NCBI GenBank assembly: GCA_013314715.1
Contig: JABUFC010000001.1
Span: forward strand, 100,511-164,510
Length of the DNA stretch: 64,000 bases
Source: Bacteroidales bacterium
GTDB taxonomy: Bacteria; Bacteroidota; Bacteroidia; Bacteroidales; GWA2-32-17
Direction: 5' to 3'
Part shown: positions 29,171 to 38,304 of the stretch, one piece after another
Numbering within the stretch: the stretch's first letter is position 1
Layout of the letters: each line of letters begins with the position of its first letter
Notes under the pieces: model-generated
Told to the model about the DNA's origin: nothing
Databases searched by the model: none
What the model saw: the letters and a program-made list of their open reading frames with translations, nothing else
Made by a program: the position numbers and the translations under genes

Positions 29171-29816
29171 ATCCAATTATCTAAAATTAATAATTTAAAG
29201 AACGTTGCAAAAATCCAAACATTTAAAAAATTACAGAGGAAAAATAATAAAAAACTTATTTGCTGTTTATTGAAATTTGTTTTATTTTTGTATAGTTAAC
29301 ATCTGTAATGCTTTTCAGGTATTATATACAAGCTCTTTTTAGCTTACAAAAACTGTAAGTGAAAGGGCGGAGCTGTAGAATAAAATGAGCAAAAATAGTT
29401 TACAAAAAATTAAATCGCCTTTTAATGATTTGTAATTTATCTTTTATATTTGTAAAAAAATAAAACGCTACATTATAGCGCTTATACATCCAAATATGGA
29501 AATAAGGCGCAATAAAGTAGCGCATATAAACGAGTTATATTTCATTGCTCGTATTCACAAGTATTAGTGTTTCATATTAGCTGAGTTTATTTTTTTAGCA
29601 TATCATAAAATTATCACCTCAGAAGCTTTTTCGAGCAAAAATACTTTTCACACGCTTTGTCATGAAATTTGTACGGGCATGAAAACAAAAAAATGGGCAA
29701 CAAAATAAACGTTCTACGAAATAAACCACTTTATTGAGCTTATTGGAGAAAGGGAGCAATACAAATTTCCATGCCAAAGCTTACTTAACAGCATACTTCG
29801 CAACACAAACATAACA

Positions 29817-29920
29817 GCCGCTTGGTAGCATTTTTTAGTTTATTTTCAATAACACTTGGATATTATAAATAAATGTTTTAACTTTGTCGAGCAACGTTCA
29901 TAAAAACGCTACCAAGCGGC
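29817..29920. repeat. 13-bp perfect inverted repeat with a 78-nt AT-rich spacer
   Basis: gccgcttggtagc (29817-29829) and gctaccaagcggc (29908-29920) are exact reverse complements. The match extends to 19 of 20 positions if the adjacent T/A run is included. Confidence 0.85.
29856..29886 (+). promoter_or_regulatory. candidate promoter of the metal-efflux operon (-33 TTG, -7 TAacTTTG)
   Basis: TTG at 29856-29858 and TAACTTTG at 29879-29886 are 20 nt apart, matching the Bacteroidota promoter architecture. The promoter lies inside the spacer of the inverted repeat. Confidence 0.5.
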
Positions 29921-30046
29921 GGAACGTTGGCAGCAATGGTAACGGACGACACTACCAAGACCAAACGGACAGAAAAAACGAGCAGACAATGACACAAGAC
30001 AAAGATTTAATTTTTGCCCAACACACATTTTTTTGTTTTTCTGCCA

Positions 30047-30122
30047 CCGCACAAGTGGCACATTTGGTTTTGCCCGACACACAACGCCAACGCTTCGCAA
30101 AACCAAAAGAGCCACTTTTTCC
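30047..30122 (+). repeat. C/A-rich block cluster, left copy (partner at 38325-38434)
   Basis: The left copy contains, in order, ccgcacaag, gcacatttg, cgacacacaa, acgcttcgcaaaa, caaaagagc and ctttttcc. All six recur in the same orientation at 38325-38434. Confidence 0.6.
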
Positions 30123-30171
30123 CTATCGAACTTAGACAGCGTTTTAAATTTTTAAGTATCTTTACCAGCGA

Positions 30172-30483
30172 ATGAAGTGTTTTTTAATCATATTCAGTGT
30201 TTATTTCTTGGCATTATCGCTAATGCCTTGTACTGATGCACTCGGTATGAATGCCCCCAATACTTCAAAAACAGAAATTACTAAAACGCACAATGGCGAT
30301 GCAGAACATAACGATTTTTGCAGTCCGTTTTGTATTTGTAGTTGTTGTAATACCCCTGTTAATATAACCTTTGATTCGTTTAGCATAAAGGTAAATAAAC
30401 CTGTCGCAACTTCACTTAAAATACCCGTTTTTAATTTCTTTTTCGCTTCCAATTACTACGGAAGCATTTGGCAACCGCCATAA
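30172..30483 (+). CDS. small Cys-rich membrane-anchored or secreted protein (DUF6660-like)
   Basis: 103 aa with a hydrophobic N-terminus MKCFLIIFSVYFLALSLMPCTDA, the Cys cluster CSPFCICSCC and the C-terminal GSIWQPP. From memory, this family is annotated DUF6660 and typically precedes czcA in Bacteroidota. Confidence 0.7.
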   Translation: MKCFLIIFSVYFLALSLMPCTDALGMNAPNTSKTEITKTHNGDAEHNDFCSPFCICSCCNTPVNITFDSFSIKVNKPVATSLKIPVFNFFFASNYYGSIWQPP

Positions 30484-30586
30484 ATCAGTTAATGAATTTA
30501 TGATGTTCTGTAACGCAGAACAAAACAGAATTATTTACGGTGCTTACGCACCGCAAATAATCGTGTATTCATTCATTAAACTGATT
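30483..30586 (+). promoter_or_regulatory. 104-nt three-stem structured element between the DUF6660-like gene and czcA
   Basis: The outer stem pairs 30483-30497 with 30571-30586 (15 bp, one bulged A). It encloses hairpins gttctg/cagaac (30505-30521) and cggtgc/gcaccg (30538-30553). The element ends 8 nt before the czcA ATG. Confidence 0.5.
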
Positions 30587-30593
30587 AAAAATA

Positions 30594-33500
30594 ATGTTAG
30601 ATAAAATCATAAAATTTAGTATTCAAAACAAGCTTGTTATTGGTATAATGACCTTGTTGCTTATCATTTGGGGAGTGTGGAGTGCCACAAAGCTTCCCAT
30701 TGATGCCGTACCTGATATTACCAACAATCAGGTTCAGATTATTACCGTTTGTCCTACGCTTGCGGCACAGGAAGTGGAACAGTTGGTGACATTTCCTATT
30801 GAACAAAGCATTGCCAACCTGCCCGATTTAGAAGAAACCCGAAGTATTTCACGGTTTGGGCTTTCGGTTATTACGGTTGTATTTGATGATAATGTGGATA
30901 TATATTTTGCCCGACAGCTTGTCAATGAAAAACTGAAAGAAGCCGAAGAAAAAATCCCAAAAGGCATTGGCACACCCGAACTTGCACCTGTAAGCACAGG
31001 TTTGGGCGAAGTGTACCAATACATCATACACCCCAAAAAAGGGAGTGAACATAAATACAATGCCAAAGACTTGCGTACTATGCAGGATTGGATTGTTGCC
31101 CGACAGCTAAACGGAACAAAAGGCATAGCCGAAGTAAACAGTTTTGGTGGCGAACTGAAACAATATGAAGTAGCCGTAAATCCCAACCGCTTAAAGGCAA
31201 TGGGTGTAAGTGTTACCGATATTTTCAATGCTCTTGAAAAGAACAATCAGAATACAGGTGGTGCATACATTGACAAAAAACCAAATGCTTACTTCATTCG
31301 GGGTATTGGTTTGGTTACTTCGTTGGAAGATGTAAAAAACATAGCTGTAAAAAACACTAACGGCAGTATTCCGATTTTTATAAAAGATGTTGCAGAAGTT
31401 CGTTTTGGTAATGCGGTTCGCTACGGAGCATTAACCTACAATGGCGAAGTAGATGCCGTTGGCGGTGTGGTAATGATGCTCAAAGGCGAAAACAGCAACG
31501 AAGTAGTAAAACGTATCAAAGAAAAATTGCCTGTCATTCAGAAATCTTTGCCCGATGATATTGTCATTGAGCCTTATTTGGACAGAACAGATTTAGTTGG
31601 CAGAGCAATCAGCACCGTAGAAAAGAATTTAATTGAGGGAGCGTTGATTGTCATTTTCGTGTTGGTGCTGTTTTTGGGAAATTTAAGAGCAGGTTTAATT
31701 GTGGCTTCCGCTATTCCGTTGTCAATGCTGTTTGCTTTGGGAATGATGAATGTTTTCGGAGTAAGTGCCAATTTAATGAGTTTAGGAGCTATTGACTTTG
31801 GTTTGATTGTGGACGGTGCAGTTATTATTGTAGAAGCCACTTTGCACCATTTGGGTTTGCGAAAATCAATGAACAAGCTGACACAGCAGGAAATGGACAA
31901 CGAAGTTTTTGTGTCCGCTTCCAAAATCAGAAACAGTGCAGCGTTTGGCGAAATCATTATTTTAATCGTGTACATTCCTATTCTCACATTGGTAGGCGTT
32001 GAGGGCAAAATGTTTACACCAATGGCTAAAACAGTAGGATTTGCCATTTTGGGAGCATTTATTTTGTCGCTTACTTATATACCAATGATGTGTGCTTTGT
32101 TTTTGTCAAAAAAAAGTTTCACACAAAGAAACCATTTCAGACAAGATGATGAACTACCTGCAAAGCATTTACCAACCGCTTTTGCAGAAAGCCGTAAAAA
32201 TAAAATATTGGATTGTTGCTTCGACCGCTCTACTCTTTGCCTTTTCCCTTTTGCTCTTTAAAAATTTAGGTGGCGAATTTATACCACAATTACAAGAGGG
32301 CGATTTTGCGTTTCATTGCATATTGCCACAAGGCAGTTCGTTGAGCCAAAGTATTGAAACTTCAATGCAGGCATCAAGAATTATCAAGGAATTTGATGAA
32401 GTAAAAATGGTAGTCGGCAAAACAGGGGCTGCCGAAGTACCTACCGACCCGATGCCACCTGAAGCCACAGATTTAATGGTAATACTTAAACCAAAAAAGG
32501 AATGGAAAGAACAGAAAAGCTATAACCAGCTAGCTGATGAAATCAATGAAGCTTTGGAGGTTATACCGGGTGTATTCTTTGAAAAAAATCAGCCTATACA
32601 AATGCGTTTCAACGAATTGATGACAGGGATTCGGCAGGATGTGGCGGTTAAGATTTTCGGGGAAAATTTAGACAGTCTTGCCATTTATGCAGATAAGGTA
32701 AGTAAGGTTATTCAAACAGTAAACGGAGCGACTTCGCCACAGGTAGAACGGGTTAGCCGATTGCCACTAATCAATGTAGAATACGATAGAACACGACTTG
32801 CCAATTACGGTATCAATGTAGAAGATGTAAACAATGTAGTAAGCACCGCATTTGCAGGAAAAAGTGCAGGACAGGTTTTTGAAAACGAAAGGCGTTTTGA
32901 TTTAGTGGTACGATTAGACAGTACATACAGAACGGACATAGACGATGTAAGCAATTTGATGATACCTACCAACACAGGTAATCAGATACCACTATCACAA
33001 GTAGCTAATATTAGCTACAAGTTGGGACCAGCACAAATCAGCCGGGAAGCAAGCAAAAGAAGAATTGTTATCGGCTTCAACGTATCGGGCAGAGATGTAC
33101 AAAGTGTGGTTGAAGATATTCAGCAGAAATTAAGCGAGCAGATAAAATTGCCCACAGGCTATTACTTTACTTATGGCGGACAGTTTGAGAATTTACAGAA
33201 AGCAAGTAAACGCCTGATGATAGCTGTTCCAATTTCGCTGTTCCTTATTTTTTCGTTGCTATACTTTACGTTCCGTTCGGTCAAACAGGCAAGCCTGATT
33301 TTTACCGCAATCCCAATGAGTGCCATAGGTGGCGTGTTTGCGTTGCTGTTGCGTGGTATGCCGTTCAGCATTTCGGCAGGTATCGGCTTTATTGCTTTGT
33401 TTGGTGTAGCAGTATTAAACGGAATTGTCTTAATCGGAACTTTCAACCAATTAGAAAAAGACGGAGTTAAAGACATTTTCAAACGAGTATTTGACGGCAC

Positions 33501-34962
33501 AAAGGAAAGGTTGCGACCTGTACTAATGACGGCAACCGTAGCAAGTTTGGGCTTTTTGCCTATGGCATTAAGCACAGGTGCAGGAGCAGAAGTACAAAAA
33601 CCATTGGCAACCGTTGTTATTGGCGGATTGATTACGGCTACTTTCCTTACGCTGTTTGTACTGCCTTTGCTGTATATCATTTTCAATTCAAAAATCAACA
33701 TCAGAAAAAAAGGAAAAATGAAATCCGTTACAACCGTAATTGTGTTGTTGCTTTCTGTTTTAAGTTTCAATGCAAATGCTCAAAACAAAAAAATAATTGG
33801 TGTAGATGAATCGATAAACATTGCATTGCAAAACAACGGAAATATAAAAGCGAAAGATTTTGAAATAAAATCGGCTCAAAGTCTGAAAAGAACATCGGGC
33901 GAATTACCGAAATTAGATTTTAATGCACAGTTGGGACAATACAACAGTATAAAGTTTGACCAATCTTTTCAAGTAGCACAAACGATACCGTTTCCGACTT
34001 TGTTCGGTGCTAAAAAACAACTGATAAATGCCGAAGTAAAAGGCAAAGAATTACAAAGTGAAATAACCGTATTGGAGTTAAAAAATCAAGTGCGTACTTA
34101 TTTCTATCAAATTCAGTATTTGCAGAATAATCAAAAGCAGTTGTTGTATTTGGATAGTTTGTACAATGATTTTATCAAAGTGGCAGAACTGCGTTACAAA
34201 ACAGGCGACACCAAAAAAGTAGAAATCAGTACAGCACAAGCCAAGCAAGGCGAAATCAATTTATTGCTGAAACAAAATGGAGTTTATCTCAATAATGCTT
34301 ATCAAAATTTACAGGCATTGATGAATACAAAAGAACCGTTTGAAGTTGCCAATGATACAGATTTTAAGCCTTTGCAGGTAAGCACTTTGTTAGACAGCAC
34401 AGCCATTGCAAACCACCCGACAATTAAGGCGTTGTATCAAGATATAATCATTGCAGAACAAACAAAAAAGGTAGAGAAAGCACAGGGTTTGCCCGATTTT
34501 ACGATTGGTTACACTAATCAGTCTTTAATAGGTTTTCAAACTATAAACGGACAGGAGCAGTATTTTAATTCGGGCAATCGGTTCAGTTATGTAAGCGTTG
34601 GTGTTTCTATTCCTTTGACTTTCGGAGCTACAAAAGCAAGGATAAAATCTTTGGACTATCAAAAACAAGCCATTGAAGCCAACACCAAGCAACAGCAAAT
34701 TTTGTTGGAAACACAGTTTCAAAATGCCATACAGCAGTATCAGCAGGATTTGCAGGAGTTCAATTACTATCAGCAACAAGCCTTGCCTAATGCAAACGAT
34801 ATTGTTTCATCGGCTCAATTAGGTTATCGCACAGGCGATATAAGCTATGTGGAGTATTTGTATGCTTTGCAAACGGCAACAGACATTCAGTTGAATTACC
34901 TAAAAAGTATTCAGCAGGTCAATCAATCGGTCATCAATATTTATTCAATAATCAATCAATAA
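30594..34962 (+). pseudogene. czcA: CzcA/CusA-family heavy-metal RND pump fused in frame to a TolC-like outer-membrane factor, interrupted by a frameshift
   Basis: ORF 30594..32261 gives the CzcA N-terminal half (MLDKIIKFSIQNKLVIG...). ORF 32092..34962 in the +1 frame continues it (VSHKETISDKMMNYLQSIYQPLL...). That ORF runs without a stop into a TolC-like module beginning MKSVTTVIVLLLSVLSFNANAQ at 33718. The frames join at the A8 tract at 32108-32115. Confidence 0.85.
32108..32115 (+). other. A8 homopolymer at the czcA frameshift site
   Basis: Frame 0 reads TCA AAA AAA AGT (SKKS...) and terminates 49 codons later. With A7 or A10 the reading would be S K K (K) V S H K E, which is continuous CzcA sequence. 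Confidence 0.9.
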
Positions 34963-34968
34963 TTCGGT

Positions 34969-36258
34969 ATGAAATTCAAAATAAAAAATTCAATCGTTTT
35001 TCCTTTGGCACTATGCACTTTGCTTGTGATAAGCAGTTGCGGTAGCAAAGACAATCATTCGCATAATGACGAAAATACAAAAGAAACAGGTACTTCTGAC
35101 GGACACAACCACGAAGAAGAAACGCCAACCATTGTCACGCTTACACAAGAGCAGATAAAAGCCGTTGGCATCACGTTGGGCAAAGTAGAAAACAAGGAAC
35201 TCACAGCCACTATAAAGGTAAATGGTATGCTTAAAGTTCCAAACAACAACAAAGCAATTGCCACTTCTTTGTATGGTGGAGTTATCAAAACGCTGAATGT
35301 GCAAATTGGCGATTATGTAAAGAAAGGACAGGTAATTGCTACGATTGCCAATCCGCAGTTTATACAGTTGCAGGAAGAATATTTGACTATTGGCAGTAAA
35401 ATCACTTTTGCAGAACAGGAAGTACAACGCCAAAATGAACTCAATGCAGGAAACGCAGGAGCTTTGAAAAATCTGCAATACGCAACGGCAGAACTCAATA
35501 CGCTTCGCACCCGAAAAGCATCATTGCAACAGCAAATACAGCTAATGGGCATCAATCCAAATTCGGTATCAAACAGCAACTTGAAATCTACATTGGTAGT
35601 TACAAGTCCGTTGAATGGAACAATAAGCAATTTGTTTGCAAAGATTGGCAGTTATGTAGATATTTCTTCGCCTGTTGCCGAAATCGTAGATAACAGTTCA
35701 TTGCATTTGGATTTACAAGTGTTTGAAAAAGATTTACCGCTTTTGAAAATCGGGCAAACCATTCATTTTACCTTAACCAATAATCCTACTAATGAATACG
35801 ATGCAAAAGTGTTTAGCATTGGTTCATCATTTGAAAACGAGAGCAAAACCATTGCCGTGCATTGCACCGTTACAGGAAACAAAATAGGTTTGATTGACGG
35901 AATGAACATTACAGGAATTGTGAGTTTGAGCAATGCCCTAACACCTGCCGTACCCAATGAAGCCATTGTAAACGCAGACGGAAAAGACTACATTTTTGTT
36001 GTTACTGATAAAAAAGCGGAAGAACACCACGAAGAAGAAAGCGAAGAACACAACCACGAAAGTGAAGACCGTAAACACAGCAATGAAGAAAACGGCAACA
36101 TCAATTTTGAAAAAATAGAAGTTGTAAAAGGCGTTTCCAATATGGGCTACACCGCAATAACTTTTGTACAGGACATTCCTGCCAATGCTCAAATTGTAAT
36201 CAAAGGAGCATTTTTTGTCAATGCCAAATTATCTAACACAGGAGGACACAATCATTAA
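34969..36258 (+). CDS. czcB: efflux RND periplasmic adaptor subunit (CzcB/HlyD family), His-rich termini
   Basis: 429 aa with lipoprotein-like N-terminus LVISSCGS and a biotinyl-lipoyl-like fold (GDYVKKGQVIATIANP). His/Glu-rich tracts are HSHNDEN..DGHNHEEE and EEHHEEESEEHNHESEDRKH, and the protein ends GGHNH. Confidence 0.88.
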   Translation: MKFKIKNSIVFPLALCTLLVISSCGSKDNHSHNDENTKETGTSDGHNHEEETPTIVTLTQEQIKAVGITLGKVENKELTATIKVNGMLKVPNNNKAIATSLYGGVIKTLNVQIGDYVKKGQVIATIANPQFIQLQEEYLTIGSKITFAEQEVQRQNELNAGNAGALKNLQYATAELNTLRTRKASLQQQIQLMGINPNSVSNSNLKSTLVVTSPLNGTISNLFAKIGSYVDISSPVAEIVDNSSLHLDLQVFEKDLPLLKIGQTIHFTLTNNPTNEYDAKVFSIGSSFENESKTIAVHCTVTGNKIGLIDGMNITGIVSLSNALTPAVPNEAIVNADGKDYIFVVTDKKAEEHHEEESEEHNHESEDRKHSNEENGNINFEKIEVVKGVSNMGYTAITFVQDIPANAQIVIKGAFFVNAKLSNTGGHNH

Positions 36259-36270
36259 AAATTAAAAGCA

Positions 36271-38304
36271 ATGATAAATACAGATAAAAATCACAAGCAT
36301 ATTTACAATGTACAAGGTAAGCAGCTTTGTTGCACACAGGAAGAAAAAATTTACACCAATGCAGGTGCAAAAGAGTTGATAAAAGAAAAGCATCAACACG
36401 ACCATAGCGATGATGACGGACACGACCACAGCCACAGTGATAGCAACCTTTTCAAAGTGTTTTTGCCAAGCATTATTTCATTGGTGCTATTGCTTGTTGC
36501 CGTTTATTTAGACAATTTCCTAAAACCAGAATGGTTTACAGGTTTGGTAAGGATTGTTTGGTATGTGGTGGCTTATATTCCTGTTGGGTTTCCTGTAATC
36601 AAAGAAGCCGTTGAAAGCATTGCCAAAGGCGAGATATTTTCCGAATTTCTGTTGATGAGCATTGCCACAATCGGAGCGTTTGCCATTGGCGAATATCCGG
36701 AGGGCGTAGCCGTAATGTTGTTTTATGCTGTTGGCGAAGTGTTTCAGACATTGGCGGTAAAAAGAGCAAAAGCAAATATCAAATCTTTGCTTGACCAAAG
36801 ACCCGATGAAGTAACCGTTTTGCGAAACAACCAACCCCAAACCGTAAAGGCAGAAAGCGTAAACATTGGCGAAATCATACAATTAAAATCGGGCGAAAAA
36901 TTGGGATTAGACGGAGTTTTGTTATCCGAAACAGCATCATTTAACACCGCAGCTTTAACAGGCGAAAGCAAACCCGATACCAAAGCCAAAGGCGAAACAG
37001 TTTTGGCAGGAATGATAAACCTAAACACCGTTGCACAGATAGAAGTTACCACAGCATACACCGATAGTAAGTTGAGTAAAATTTTAGAATTGGTACAAAA
37101 TGCCACTTCACAAAAAGCACCGACAGAATTATTCATTAGAAAGTTTGCAAAAATATACACACCGATAGTTGTACTGTTAGCTATTCTAATTACAGCATTG
37201 CCCTACTTCTTTGTAGAAAATTATGTGTTCAGCCAATGGTTGTATCGTGCTTTGGTATTCCTTGTTATCTCTTGCCCTTGTGCATTGGTAATAAGTATTC
37301 CTTTAGGCTACTTTGGCGGAATTGGGGCAGCGAGTAAAAATGGAATATTGGTTAAGGGAAGCAACTTTTTGGATGTTCTTGCCAGCATACAAAATGTAGT
37401 AATGGATAAGACAGGTACAATGACGGAGGGCGTATTTAAAGTTCAGGAAGTTGTATTTGACAAGGCATTTGATGAGAAAGAAATTTTAGAAATGGTCAAT
37501 GCTTTGGAAAGCCATAGTAGCCACCCCGTAGCAACTGCCATTCAAGAATATGTAGGCGATGTAAACCACAATATCCCATTAGAAAATATAGAGGAAATTG
37601 CAGGACACGGACTAAAGGCTAATGTAAATGGGAAAGAATTATTGGTAGGGAATTTTAAGCTGATGGATAAATTTTCTATTACTTATGACATAGACCCGAA
37701 CAGCATTGTCTACACGGTAATCGCAGTGGCTTATGATAGAAAGTTTGTTGGTTACATTACCATTGCGGACAGCATAAAAGAAGACGCACAGGAAACCATA
37801 AATCTATTGCATAAGCTCAATGTTAAAGCTACTATGCTTAGCGGAGATAAAAGTACGGTTGTAAAGTATGTAGCGGAACAGTTGGGGATAGATAATGCTT
37901 TCGGAGATTTATTGCCTGAAGATAAAGTAAACAGAGTTAAAGAAATCAAAGCCAAAAATGAAACCGTTGCCTTTGTCGGAGACGGTGTAAATGATGCACC
38001 TGTTGTAGCGTTAAGTGATGTCGGTATTGCAATGGGCGGTTTAGGTAGCGATGCCACCATTGAAACAGCAGACGTAGTAATACAAGACGACAAGCCGAGT
38101 AAAATACCTATGGCAATCAATATCGGTAAACAGACAAAGAAAATTGTTTGGCAAAATATCACATTGGCATTTGTAGTAAAAGGAATTGTTTTAATACTTG
38201 GTGCAGGTGGCTTGGCAACAATGTGGGAAGCCGTTTTTGCCGATGTAGGTGTAGCATTATTGGCAATCTTAAACGCAGTACGAATACAACGAATGAAATT
38301 TTGA
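36271..38304 (+). CDS. heavy-metal translocating P1B-type ATPase (Zn/Cd/Co-type)
   Basis: 677 aa with SCPCAL (CPC), DKTGTMT, SSHPV and GDGVNDAP motifs. The N-terminus is the His-rich tract HQHDHSDDDGHDHSHSD rather than a CxxC HMA domain. Confidence 0.92.
   Translation: MINTDKNHKHIYNVQGKQLCCTQEEKIYTNAGAKELIKEKHQHDHSDDDGHDHSHSDSNLFKVFLPSIISLVLLLVAVYLDNFLKPEWFTGLVRIVWYVVAYIPVGFPVIKEAVESIAKGEIFSEFLLMSIATIGAFAIGEYPEGVAVMLFYAVGEVFQTLAVKRAKANIKSLLDQRPDEVTVLRNNQPQTVKAESVNIGEIIQLKSGEKLGLDGVLLSETASFNTAALTGESKPDTKAKGETVLAGMINLNTVAQIEVTTAYTDSKLSKILELVQNATSQKAPTELFIRKFAKIYTPIVVLLAILITALPYFFVENYVFSQWLYRALVFLVISCPCALVISIPLGYFGGIGAASKNGILVKGSNFLDVLASIQNVVMDKTGTMTEGVFKVQEVVFDKAFDEKEILEMVNALESHSSHPVATAIQEYVGDVNHNIPLENIEEIAGHGLKANVNGKELLVGNFKLMDKFSITYDIDPNSIVYTVIAVAYDRKFVGYITIADSIKEDAQETINLLHKLNVKATMLSGDKSTVVKYVAEQLGIDNAFGDLLPEDKVNRVKEIKAKNETVAFVGDGVNDAPVVALSDVGIAMGGLGSDATIETADVVIQDDKPSKIPMAINIGKQTKKIVWQNITLAFVVKGIVLILGAGGLATMWEAVFADVGVALLAILNAVRIQRMKF

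Follow-up and report, generated by a model that had tools for sequence, protein, structure and literature searches.

How internal cistrons are initiated and proportioned is poorly understood in Bacteroidota because their ribosomes ignore Shine-Dalgarno (SD) sequences, and a case in point is one locus in the 64,000-nucleotide (nt) stretch of Bacteroidales DNA analysed here (the window). A gene of the DUF6660 family is followed there by czcA, encoding a heavy-metal pump of the resistance-nodulation-division (RND) type, and the spacer between them folds into three stems. Is this fold genuine, in which molecule does it act, and what could it do for czcA? The window element is a genuine structured element and one version of a Bacteroidota-wide DUF6660-czcA spacer structure, a structured intercistronic element that is previously undescribed and absent from Rfam. 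It is marked by a conserved helix in which the DUF6660 stop codon and the czcA initiation region are physically joined, and by kind it appears to belong with the known intercistronic mRNA structures that coordinate translation.

Folding of positions 30483-30586 gave a minimum free energy (MFE) of -37.8 kcal/mol, compared with -14.9 +/- 2.7 kcal/mol for 200 dinucleotide shuffles (z = -8.5, 0/200 as low), and with the flanks added the same structure was both the MFE and the centroid fold. The original prediction had drawn a closing helix around two hairpins, and its three-stem fold and all of its stem coordinates check against the sequence. The parts of the element and the codons that border on it are the following.

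30448..30480, + strand: codons of the S-N-Y-Y-G-S-I-W-Q-P-P motif of DUF6660, with the two Pro codons at 30475-30480
30481..30483, + strand: derived premature stop TAA, where all relatives read AAA (Lys)
30483..30497, + strand: closing helix, 5' arm, in both the MFE and the centroid fold; 96.8% of cells paired in the 31-sequence class alignment
30490..30492, + strand: ancestral DUF6660 stop TAA, within the 5' arm of the closing helix
30504..30522, + strand: hairpin 1, 8 bp, loop AAC; CG<->UA covariation at alignment columns 29/39 in 9 sequences
30525..30566, + strand: hairpin 2, 3 + 7 + 6 bp, A.C mismatch at 30537/30554; 4 pairs changed on both sides
30571..30586, + strand: closing helix, 3' arm, with a bulged A at 30578; positions -23 to -8 of the czcA start
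30587..30596, + strand: unpaired A-rich AAAAATA and the czcA ATG, with A at -3 and -6

The closing helix pairs 30483-30497 (AATCAGTTAATGAAT) with 30571-30577 and 30579-30586, giving 15 bp interrupted by the single bulged A. Hairpin 1 has its core at 30505-30521 and is widened to 30504-30511/30515-30522 in the ViennaRNA fold, while hairpin 2 (core 30538-30553) carries seven extra pairs (30530-30536/30555-30561) and then three more (30525-30527/30564-30566) and is capped by UUAC, a tetraloop of the UNAC type. The element stops 7 nt short of the czcA ATG at 30594. The outer stem is followed by AAAAATA without a U-run, and a consensus scan of 30483-30593 found no plus-strand intrinsic terminator, which upholds the earlier view that this is not a simple terminator. 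Searches against Rfam 15 at the gathering threshold returned no match in the window and only one tRNA in 20 related loci, and at E <= 10 gave chance-level matches only.

The element had been said to start at the stop codon of DUF6660. A TAA does stand at 30481-30483; this stop is derived, and the ancestral stop lies at 30490-30492. Three related loci (L001, L004 and L005) read ccaAAAatcagttaa where the window has the premature TAA, homologues of the small protein end in ...IWQPPKIS* or a variant of it, and the window protein loses the last three residues (KIS). A locus 99.5% identical to the window over 3 kb (L014) gave a 100% match over residues 1-106 to a 106-aa query carrying Lys-Ile-Ser. 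Because the TAA at 30481-30483 is derived, the ancestral 5' arm consists of the last three codons and the stop of DUF6660 and does not lie 3' of the gene.

The structure was then compared across relatives. An alignment search with DUF6660 over species-representative genomes found more than 547 relatives, of which the best 80 of the more than 547 loci were used; with further homologous junctions from 13 assembly loci and 51 metagenome loci, 63 distinct spacers were compared in total. The best 80 loci belong to Flavobacterium, Chryseobacterium, Kaistella, Riemerella, Sphingobacterium and Pedobacter, and also to Chitinophagaceae, Saprospiraceae, Cyclobacteriaceae, Spirosomataceae, Sporocytophaga and others, and in nearly all of them czcA (MLDKII...) directly follows DUF6660. 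The spacer is widespread, occurring in hundreds of species of Flavobacteriales, Sphingobacteriales, Chitinophagales, Cytophagales and Saprospirales. Its length is mostly 85-112 nt, with some classes of 120-280 nt.

Spacer sequence is unrelated between clades, yet the closing helix is kept, with arms that differ by clade (AATCAGTTAATGAAT, AAATCTAAATTTTA, CATAATGA/TCATTATA, GATTAATA... and GTTTAGATTG/CAACCTAAAC are examples). A closing pair was counted wherever the MFE fold joined the stop region to the final 32 nt ahead of czcA; by this count, at least 6 were present in 84% and at least 8 in 79% of the 63 real spacers. The corresponding figures were 30% and 22% for 3150 dinucleotide shuffles, and 38% and 29% for 24 other co-directional spacers (70-200 nt, from crude gene calls); closing pairs per spacer typically numbered 12-20, versus 3.7. 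At L091, a locus where a different gene follows DUF6660, the closing helix is only weak (z = -1.1). Over the 63 spacers the usual extent of the 5' arm is -8 to +7, counted from the first nucleotide of the stop, and in most of them only 0-10 nt (typically about 6) separate the 3' arm from the czcA start, a closeness kept even in spacers of 180-250 nt (L074, L040 and L044). Pairing begins at +1 to +3 of the Lys/Gln codon that follows Pro-Pro, with 1, 2, 3 or 5 residues following, and the variable C-terminal tail of DUF6660 (IS, IA, I, LS, INA, ITTSC and so on) effectively forms the coding side of the helix. Within the closing helix stand one to three inner hairpins, depending on the class.

Two of the loci (L080 and L082) have spacers of 234-259 nt with an extra conserved open reading frame (ORF) of 46-47 aa containing a hydrophobic segment (M.SKGKSKKPK...IALCSIILLAAIAER...). 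L035 and L065, contigs assigned to Bifidobacterium metagenome-assembled genomes (MAGs), hold this Bacteroidota-type operon and are probably binning errors.

The original prediction had proposed that spacers be compared across Bacteroidota, and this comparison showed that homologous operons keep the structure while its pairs covary. For the 31 distinct sequences of the window class, scored on a 40-pair structure, standard pairs occupied 91.6% of cells, slid-partner controls gave 24-43%, 8 pairs were changed on both sides, and 0/500 shuffles reached the observed values. Hairpin 1 passes from gttctg/cagaac to ttccgc/gcggaa (L002, L003) and to tttcgc/gcgaaa (L029), and in the Flavobacterium class the stop-codon helix changes from TAATGA/TCATTA to TAACGT/ACGTTA while its two inner hairpins covary as well. 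In four classes, 76-97% of pairs had a spacer more conserved than the synonymous third positions of czcA. Since spacer identity within the window class (84-91%) lies far above the identity of czcA synonymous sites (37-52%; DUF6660 coding sequence about 60%), primary sequence is also constrained within a class, and the 90-91% identity of the window spacer to those of L052 and L075 includes loops and linkers.

Spacers and flanking genes are discordant. L002 and L003, the nearest loci to the window by DUF6660 and czcA, have spacers only 67-71% identical to its own, and distant loci (L052, L062, L075 and L078) reach 84-91%; between window and L002 the values are 71% for the spacer and 88% for czcA, and between window and L052 90% and 79%. 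The discordance indicates episodic turnover or recombination.

What could such a helix do? Initiation in Bacteroidetes proceeds without SD pairing and benefits from weak structure between -20 and +20 and from A at -3, -6, -12 and -13, determinants described as Kozak-like (PMC6847099). The leading candidate, which we put forward tentatively, is translational coupling, in which the intercistronic mRNA structure would mask the upstream part of the czcA initiation region and ribosomes finishing DUF6660 would melt it. If Bacteroidota ribosomes need an unstructured, A-rich initiation region in place of SD pairing, the closing helix of the folded mRNA would hold the upstream half of the czcA initiation region and leave czcA poor in independent initiation. 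A ribosome translating the last DUF6660 codons and terminating would melt the 5' arm, and the 3' arm so freed would permit initiation at czcA, or re-initiation by the same ribosome, as the helix brings the stop beside the start. Coupling would thus proceed by unfolding, possibly with the terminating ribosome handed across the base of the helix; dwelling at the Pro-Pro codons would lengthen the open state, and synthesis of the pump would be tied to that of a small membrane or periplasmic partner.

The pairing that coupling entails was found, since the initiation region is paired with the end of the upstream ORF (-8..+7 around the stop with about -23..-6 of czcA). Accessibility was computed in silico as the mean predicted pairing probability from -25 to -5 of the start. 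For czcA of the window it was 0.73 in the free mRNA; a ribosome footprint lowered it to 0.33 when placed on the ancestral stop and to 0.29 when placed on the premature one. The other starts in the window gave 0.39 (DUF6660), 0.27 (czcB) and 0.22 (ATPase). Over 62 loci the mean for czcA was 0.62 free and 0.47 with the footprint on the stop. A occupies -3 in 30/42 clusters, and the czcA start is GTG or TTG in one third of clusters.

The same features recall RNA-unfolding coupling as modelled for rpmI-rplT (spacing +52 nt) and phage f1 genes VII-IX (PMC12548453) and as seen in the MS2 coat-lysis/replicase system. There, too, the downstream initiation region pairs with the end of the upstream ORF, ribosomes completing that ORF must open the pairing, and a positive spacing such as the +52 nt of rpmI-rplT lets a second ribosome load while the first holds the helix open (PMC12548453). 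The DUF6660-czcA spacer differs in its length of 85-112 nt and in being itself a closed multi-hairpin domain; what it would mask is the A-rich region from -25 to -6 and not an SD sequence, and the czcA start codon is unpaired.

Several observations weigh against coupling. About 16% of spacers, including several long ones, lack the closing helix, and in the class of L006, L032, L033 and L038 a local hairpin spans the stop codon in its stead. In the Flavobacterium class, masking the 5' arm gives little or no predicted gain in accessibility. Because the folded state leaves the start codon and the six positions before it (-1 to -6) unpaired, occlusion may be partial only. A compact module filling the whole spacer would adjoin both genes whatever its function. 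Nor does the substitution pattern single out the sense strand. The helices are about 94% Watson-Crick, and those that can form on both strands held 17 G.U against 13 A.C in a count of one representative per cluster (with 15 other mismatches and 732 Watson-Crick pairs) and 98 against 93 in a looser count. For the window class, minus-strand folds equal or surpass those of the plus strand (L062, -48.8 versus -37.9 kcal/mol), and the enrichment of A at unpaired positions that would mark a sense strand was not seen. A strand call from G.U versus A.C was accordingly abandoned as uninformative, all three ways of counting giving about 1:1; conserved A.C mismatches in hairpin 2 of the window class favour the minus strand, and several other classes favour plus. 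As the substitution pattern carries no strand signal, the RNA nature of the constraint rests on the operon context. Since the genes are co-oriented in one operon and the anchoring to stop and start fits mRNA only, we infer that the functional molecule is the sense mRNA.

In the class of L006, L032, L033 and L038, where DUF6660 ends in ...PPKxxxxC*, TTAATGATTAA/TTAATCATTAA occurs three times: at the stop, in mid-spacer and before the start. These repeats permit mutually exclusive pairings, and the element may be a switch instead of a single closing helix.

The main rival to coupling, and one compatible with it, is an element for mRNA processing, stability or insulation, which we regard as unlikely to be the function proper and still well ahead of the remaining alternatives. 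It could shield the upstream DUF6660 segment from 3' exonucleases once the mRNA is cleaved, serve as a cleavage site for RNase III or RNase E, or keep Rho off the untranslated gap, and under any of these variants the two cistrons would reach unequal steady-state levels. Stabilising hairpins between cistrons are well established, and those of malE-malF (a repetitive extragenic palindromic, or REP, sequence) and of the Rhodobacter puf operon are likewise stable, lack a U-run and stand between two cistrons of an operon. The very stable, almost wholly Watson-Crick helices of the DUF6660-czcA spacer, the occupation of the entire spacer by structure, the purifying selection on spacers and the lack of a U-run, hence of a full terminator, would all suit such an element. 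It leaves unexplained why the 5' arm begins a set distance from the PP(K/Q) codons, still inside the coding sequence, and why the 3' arm ends a few nt from the start even in spacers of 180-250 nt (L044, L040, L074). Unlike the known stabilisers, the closing helix overlaps a stop and abuts a start at conserved distances and does not form a repeated family. Translational coupling and processing or stability had both been named at the outset, and both fit the comparative data.

The Pro-Pro codons just ahead of the helix suggest an addition to coupling. DUF6660 proteins begin with a conserved hydrophobic segment that closes on PC.D, followed by a His-rich stretch and a CSPFCxCxCC cluster (CSPFCICSCC in the window); near the C-terminus stands a motif, S-N-[FY]-Y-G-[SN]-I-W-Q-P-P-[KQ], that is kept in 62 distinct homologues. 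The constraint on this motif acts on the amino acids, because synonymous codons vary freely. The stretch between the first Cys of CSPFC and the first Pro of PP(K/Q) varies in sequence and yet measures a fixed 51-55 residues in the homologues from L001-L093; most homologues are 88-112 aa long and a few reach 132. The protein displays features 2-5 of those used to search for arrest peptides in PMC7897499 (an ORF of 80-200 aa, a topogenic N-terminus, a hydrophilic part and a conserved C-terminus), the N-terminus being putatively topogenic as read from its sequence. A search of the available library found no paper mentioning the DUF6660 family.

By analogy with arrest peptides, DUF6660 might act as a regulatory nascent peptide besides its mature role, pausing at the motif and thereby switching on translation of CzcA, an idea that we consider improbable. 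The ribosome would pause or arrest at I-W-Q-P-P-(K/Q), 1-5 codons before the stop, at which point the Cys/His cluster, 51-55 residues upstream, would be just out of the exit tunnel. The state of the cluster (metal-bound or free, exported or not) would set how long the ribosome stays, and the stalled ribosome would keep the closing helix open so that the pump is translated. In secM-secA, mifM-yidC2, vemP-secDF2 and apcA/apdA/apdP, as with DUF6660, the upstream ORF is small (about 105 aa for DUF6660), its N-terminal segment is topogenic (putatively so in DUF6660) and its middle is hydrophilic. A C-terminal motif with Pro-Pro, conserved in its amino acids, stands a few codons before the stop, and an intergenic helix reaches from the ORF end to the initiation region of the next gene (criteria in PMC7897499). 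I-W-Q-P-P also resembles the selected staller FxxYxIWPPP, alias WPPP (PMC7897499; bioRxiv 10.1101/2024.02.28.582505). In contrast to those systems, the downstream gene here encodes a CzcA-OEP heavy-metal RND pump and not a Sec or YidC component, the DUF6660 motif is identical to no proven arrest sequence, and DUF6660 has a Cys/His cluster in addition, which suggests that the mature protein is functional.

A sensor RNA, riboswitch-like or protein-binding, that controls czcA in response to a metal or a regulatory protein is very improbable. Its location in a metal-efflux operon, its multi-stem junction and the strong within-class conservation of primary sequence, loops and linkers included, would be in keeping with one, and the NiCo (czcD) and other metal riboswitches are likewise multi-helix junctions upstream of a metal-efflux gene. 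To our knowledge, known riboswitch classes retain an invariant ligand-binding core. The spacer clades share neither nucleotides nor junction geometry, and the covariance model of the window class (R1) misses the other classes; a ligand sensor is unlikely because the classes share no core. Rfam gave no family match even at E <= 10, and the spacer lies between cistrons instead of in a 5' leader, unlike the metal riboswitches. The metal-responsive cis-regulatory RNA envisaged in the original prediction therefore survives in part: a cis-acting RNA fits the comparison, and a metal riboswitch, with no Rfam match and no shared core, is unlikely.

Less probable still is a constraint acting off the sense mRNA, on a DNA palindrome (a cruciform, a protein site or the relic of a mobile element) or on a minus-strand RNA, such as a cis-antisense RNA ending at the terminator-like site of hairpin 2. 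The parity of G.U and A.C in helices almost wholly Watson-Crick is what a DNA palindrome would give, and spacer similarity is at odds with the flanking genes. The reverse complement of the window element folds better than the plus strand (-42.2 versus -37.8 kcal/mol; z = -8.9), and on the minus strand at 30529-30562 hairpin 2 becomes a 15-bp stem with G.U pairs followed by CTGTTTTGTT, which was flagged as terminator-like. This U-rich tail is conserved in the window class only. The element is single-copy and strictly syntenic, and its helices covary, which argues against a fixed protein-binding site. The Bacteroidetes-type promoter motif TAnnTTTG was not found on either strand in 29900-31000, a weak negative that is also weak evidence against an antisense RNA, a candidate set aside on that ground. 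The genes are co-oriented and 101 nt apart, so sense RNA would be made whenever the operon is transcribed.

Miniature inverted-repeat transposable elements (MITEs) and REP-like palindromes resemble the element in size (about 100 nt), in 15-bp terminal inverted repeats and in nested, near-perfect Watson-Crick palindromes. They differ from it in that the element is single-copy at one junction, one of its arms is coding, and the arms covary between clades. The MITE-like insertion once proposed was thus rejected, as the 64-kb window holds one copy, syntenic at the DUF6660->czcA junction, and no repeat of any of its parts. A search for the arm pattern with a free interior gave one match in each of 51 metagenome contigs, all placed at this junction, with both flanks verified in 47/51; in the remaining 4/51 one flanking motif was undetected, and one of the contigs (L117) ends 27 nt past the element. 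In the window and 86 loci (633 kb) the covariance model R1 matched only DUF6660->czcA junctions. No empty site was present among the 63 distinct junctions, each of which carries a structured spacer no shorter than 68 nt, target-site duplications being left unscored.

That the 34-codon ORF at 30500-30604, which overlaps the czcA start, is a translated upstream ORF (uORF) regulating czcA has next to no likelihood: the ORF exists as described, in the window, L001, L004, L005 and L014, and it is confined to the window/L001 sequence type. Spacers about 90% identical carry ORFs of 3-20 codons in other frames, the hairpin-1 loop having gained or lost bases; in L002 and L003 only 4-6 codons are open, and many clades lack any ATG. 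Codon-like conservation of the spacer, raised as the alternative to covariation, accordingly finds no support, the small ORF being kept neither in presence nor in frame or position. A programmed -1 frameshift at CCA-AAA-A, leading into the frame of the spacer, was discarded for want of a canonical X XXY YYZ heptamer, the -1 frame being open in the window type only; a bypass or shunt fusing DUF6660 to CzcA, because the AAA-ATC take-off/landing match of the window is missing from other classes (for example, CAA-ATA versus AAA-ATT in Flavobacterium); and an integron attC-like site, because the GTT/AAC core has the wrong orientation and the site is syntenic.

The spacer functionally links an uncharacterised Cys-rich family, DUF6660, to heavy-metal RND pumps. 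Were the Pro-Pro motif found to stall ribosomes, the operon would offer a new type of metal-responsive translational switch, and the nascent-peptide idea, if true, would make it a metal-responsive analogue of SecM-secA in a phylum without SD initiation. Some DUF6660-czcA operons travel between genera on mobile DNA. In ten loci (L017-L026) the DUF6660-czcA region of 4.2-5.3 kb is 97-99.98% identical among Pedobacter, Chryseobacterium, Sphingobacterium, Sediminibacterium, Kaistella and Weeksellaceae; a region near-identical across genera means that the operon moves horizontally, and its carrier is presumably a conjugative element.

The genes of the window operon are listed below, Pfam confirming DUF6660 and czcA as the flanking genes.

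30172..30483, + strand: DUF6660 gene, 103 aa as read; Pfam PF20365, E = 1.7e-11; homologues P0001-P0007
30594..34962, + strand: czcA with an outer-membrane-factor (OEP) domain; Pfam ACR_tran at positions 1-503 and 503-1020, plus OEP
34969-36258: CusB/HlyD-type adaptor gene
36271-38304: P-type ATPase gene

Besides the premature stop of DUF6660, the window copy has a second lesion, an extra A in the homopolymer at 32108-32115 (A8, where L001 and L014 have A7), which breaks czcA into ORFs 30594-32261 and 32092-34962. In L001 and L002 czcA is intact (1454-1455 aa), and both lesions are absent from L014, a MAG contig of Cyclobacteriaceae bacterium KatS3mg032. The lesions are either assembly errors or very recent decay (pseudogenisation), and they have no effect on the comparative argument. 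The CzcA-OEP fusion, a single polypeptide of about 1450 aa in the window, L001, L002, L006 and L009, appears to be standard beside DUF6660.

Upstream of the operon, the roughly 800 nt from the gene of a flavin adenine dinucleotide (FAD)-dependent protein to the operon (29171-29988) contain no long ORF and no Rfam match, and TAnnTTTG was not found in their last 90 nt. Directly 5' of DUF6660 lies a small ORF, of 48 aa in the window (29989-30135) and in L014. The same ORF in L001 (about 195-380), L004 (2819-3004) and L005 has 61 aa and an ATGA overlap onto DUF6660. Its first 130 nt or so are identical in the 4 sequences compared, among which L004 and L005 share no more than about 94% identity with the window across the broader region.

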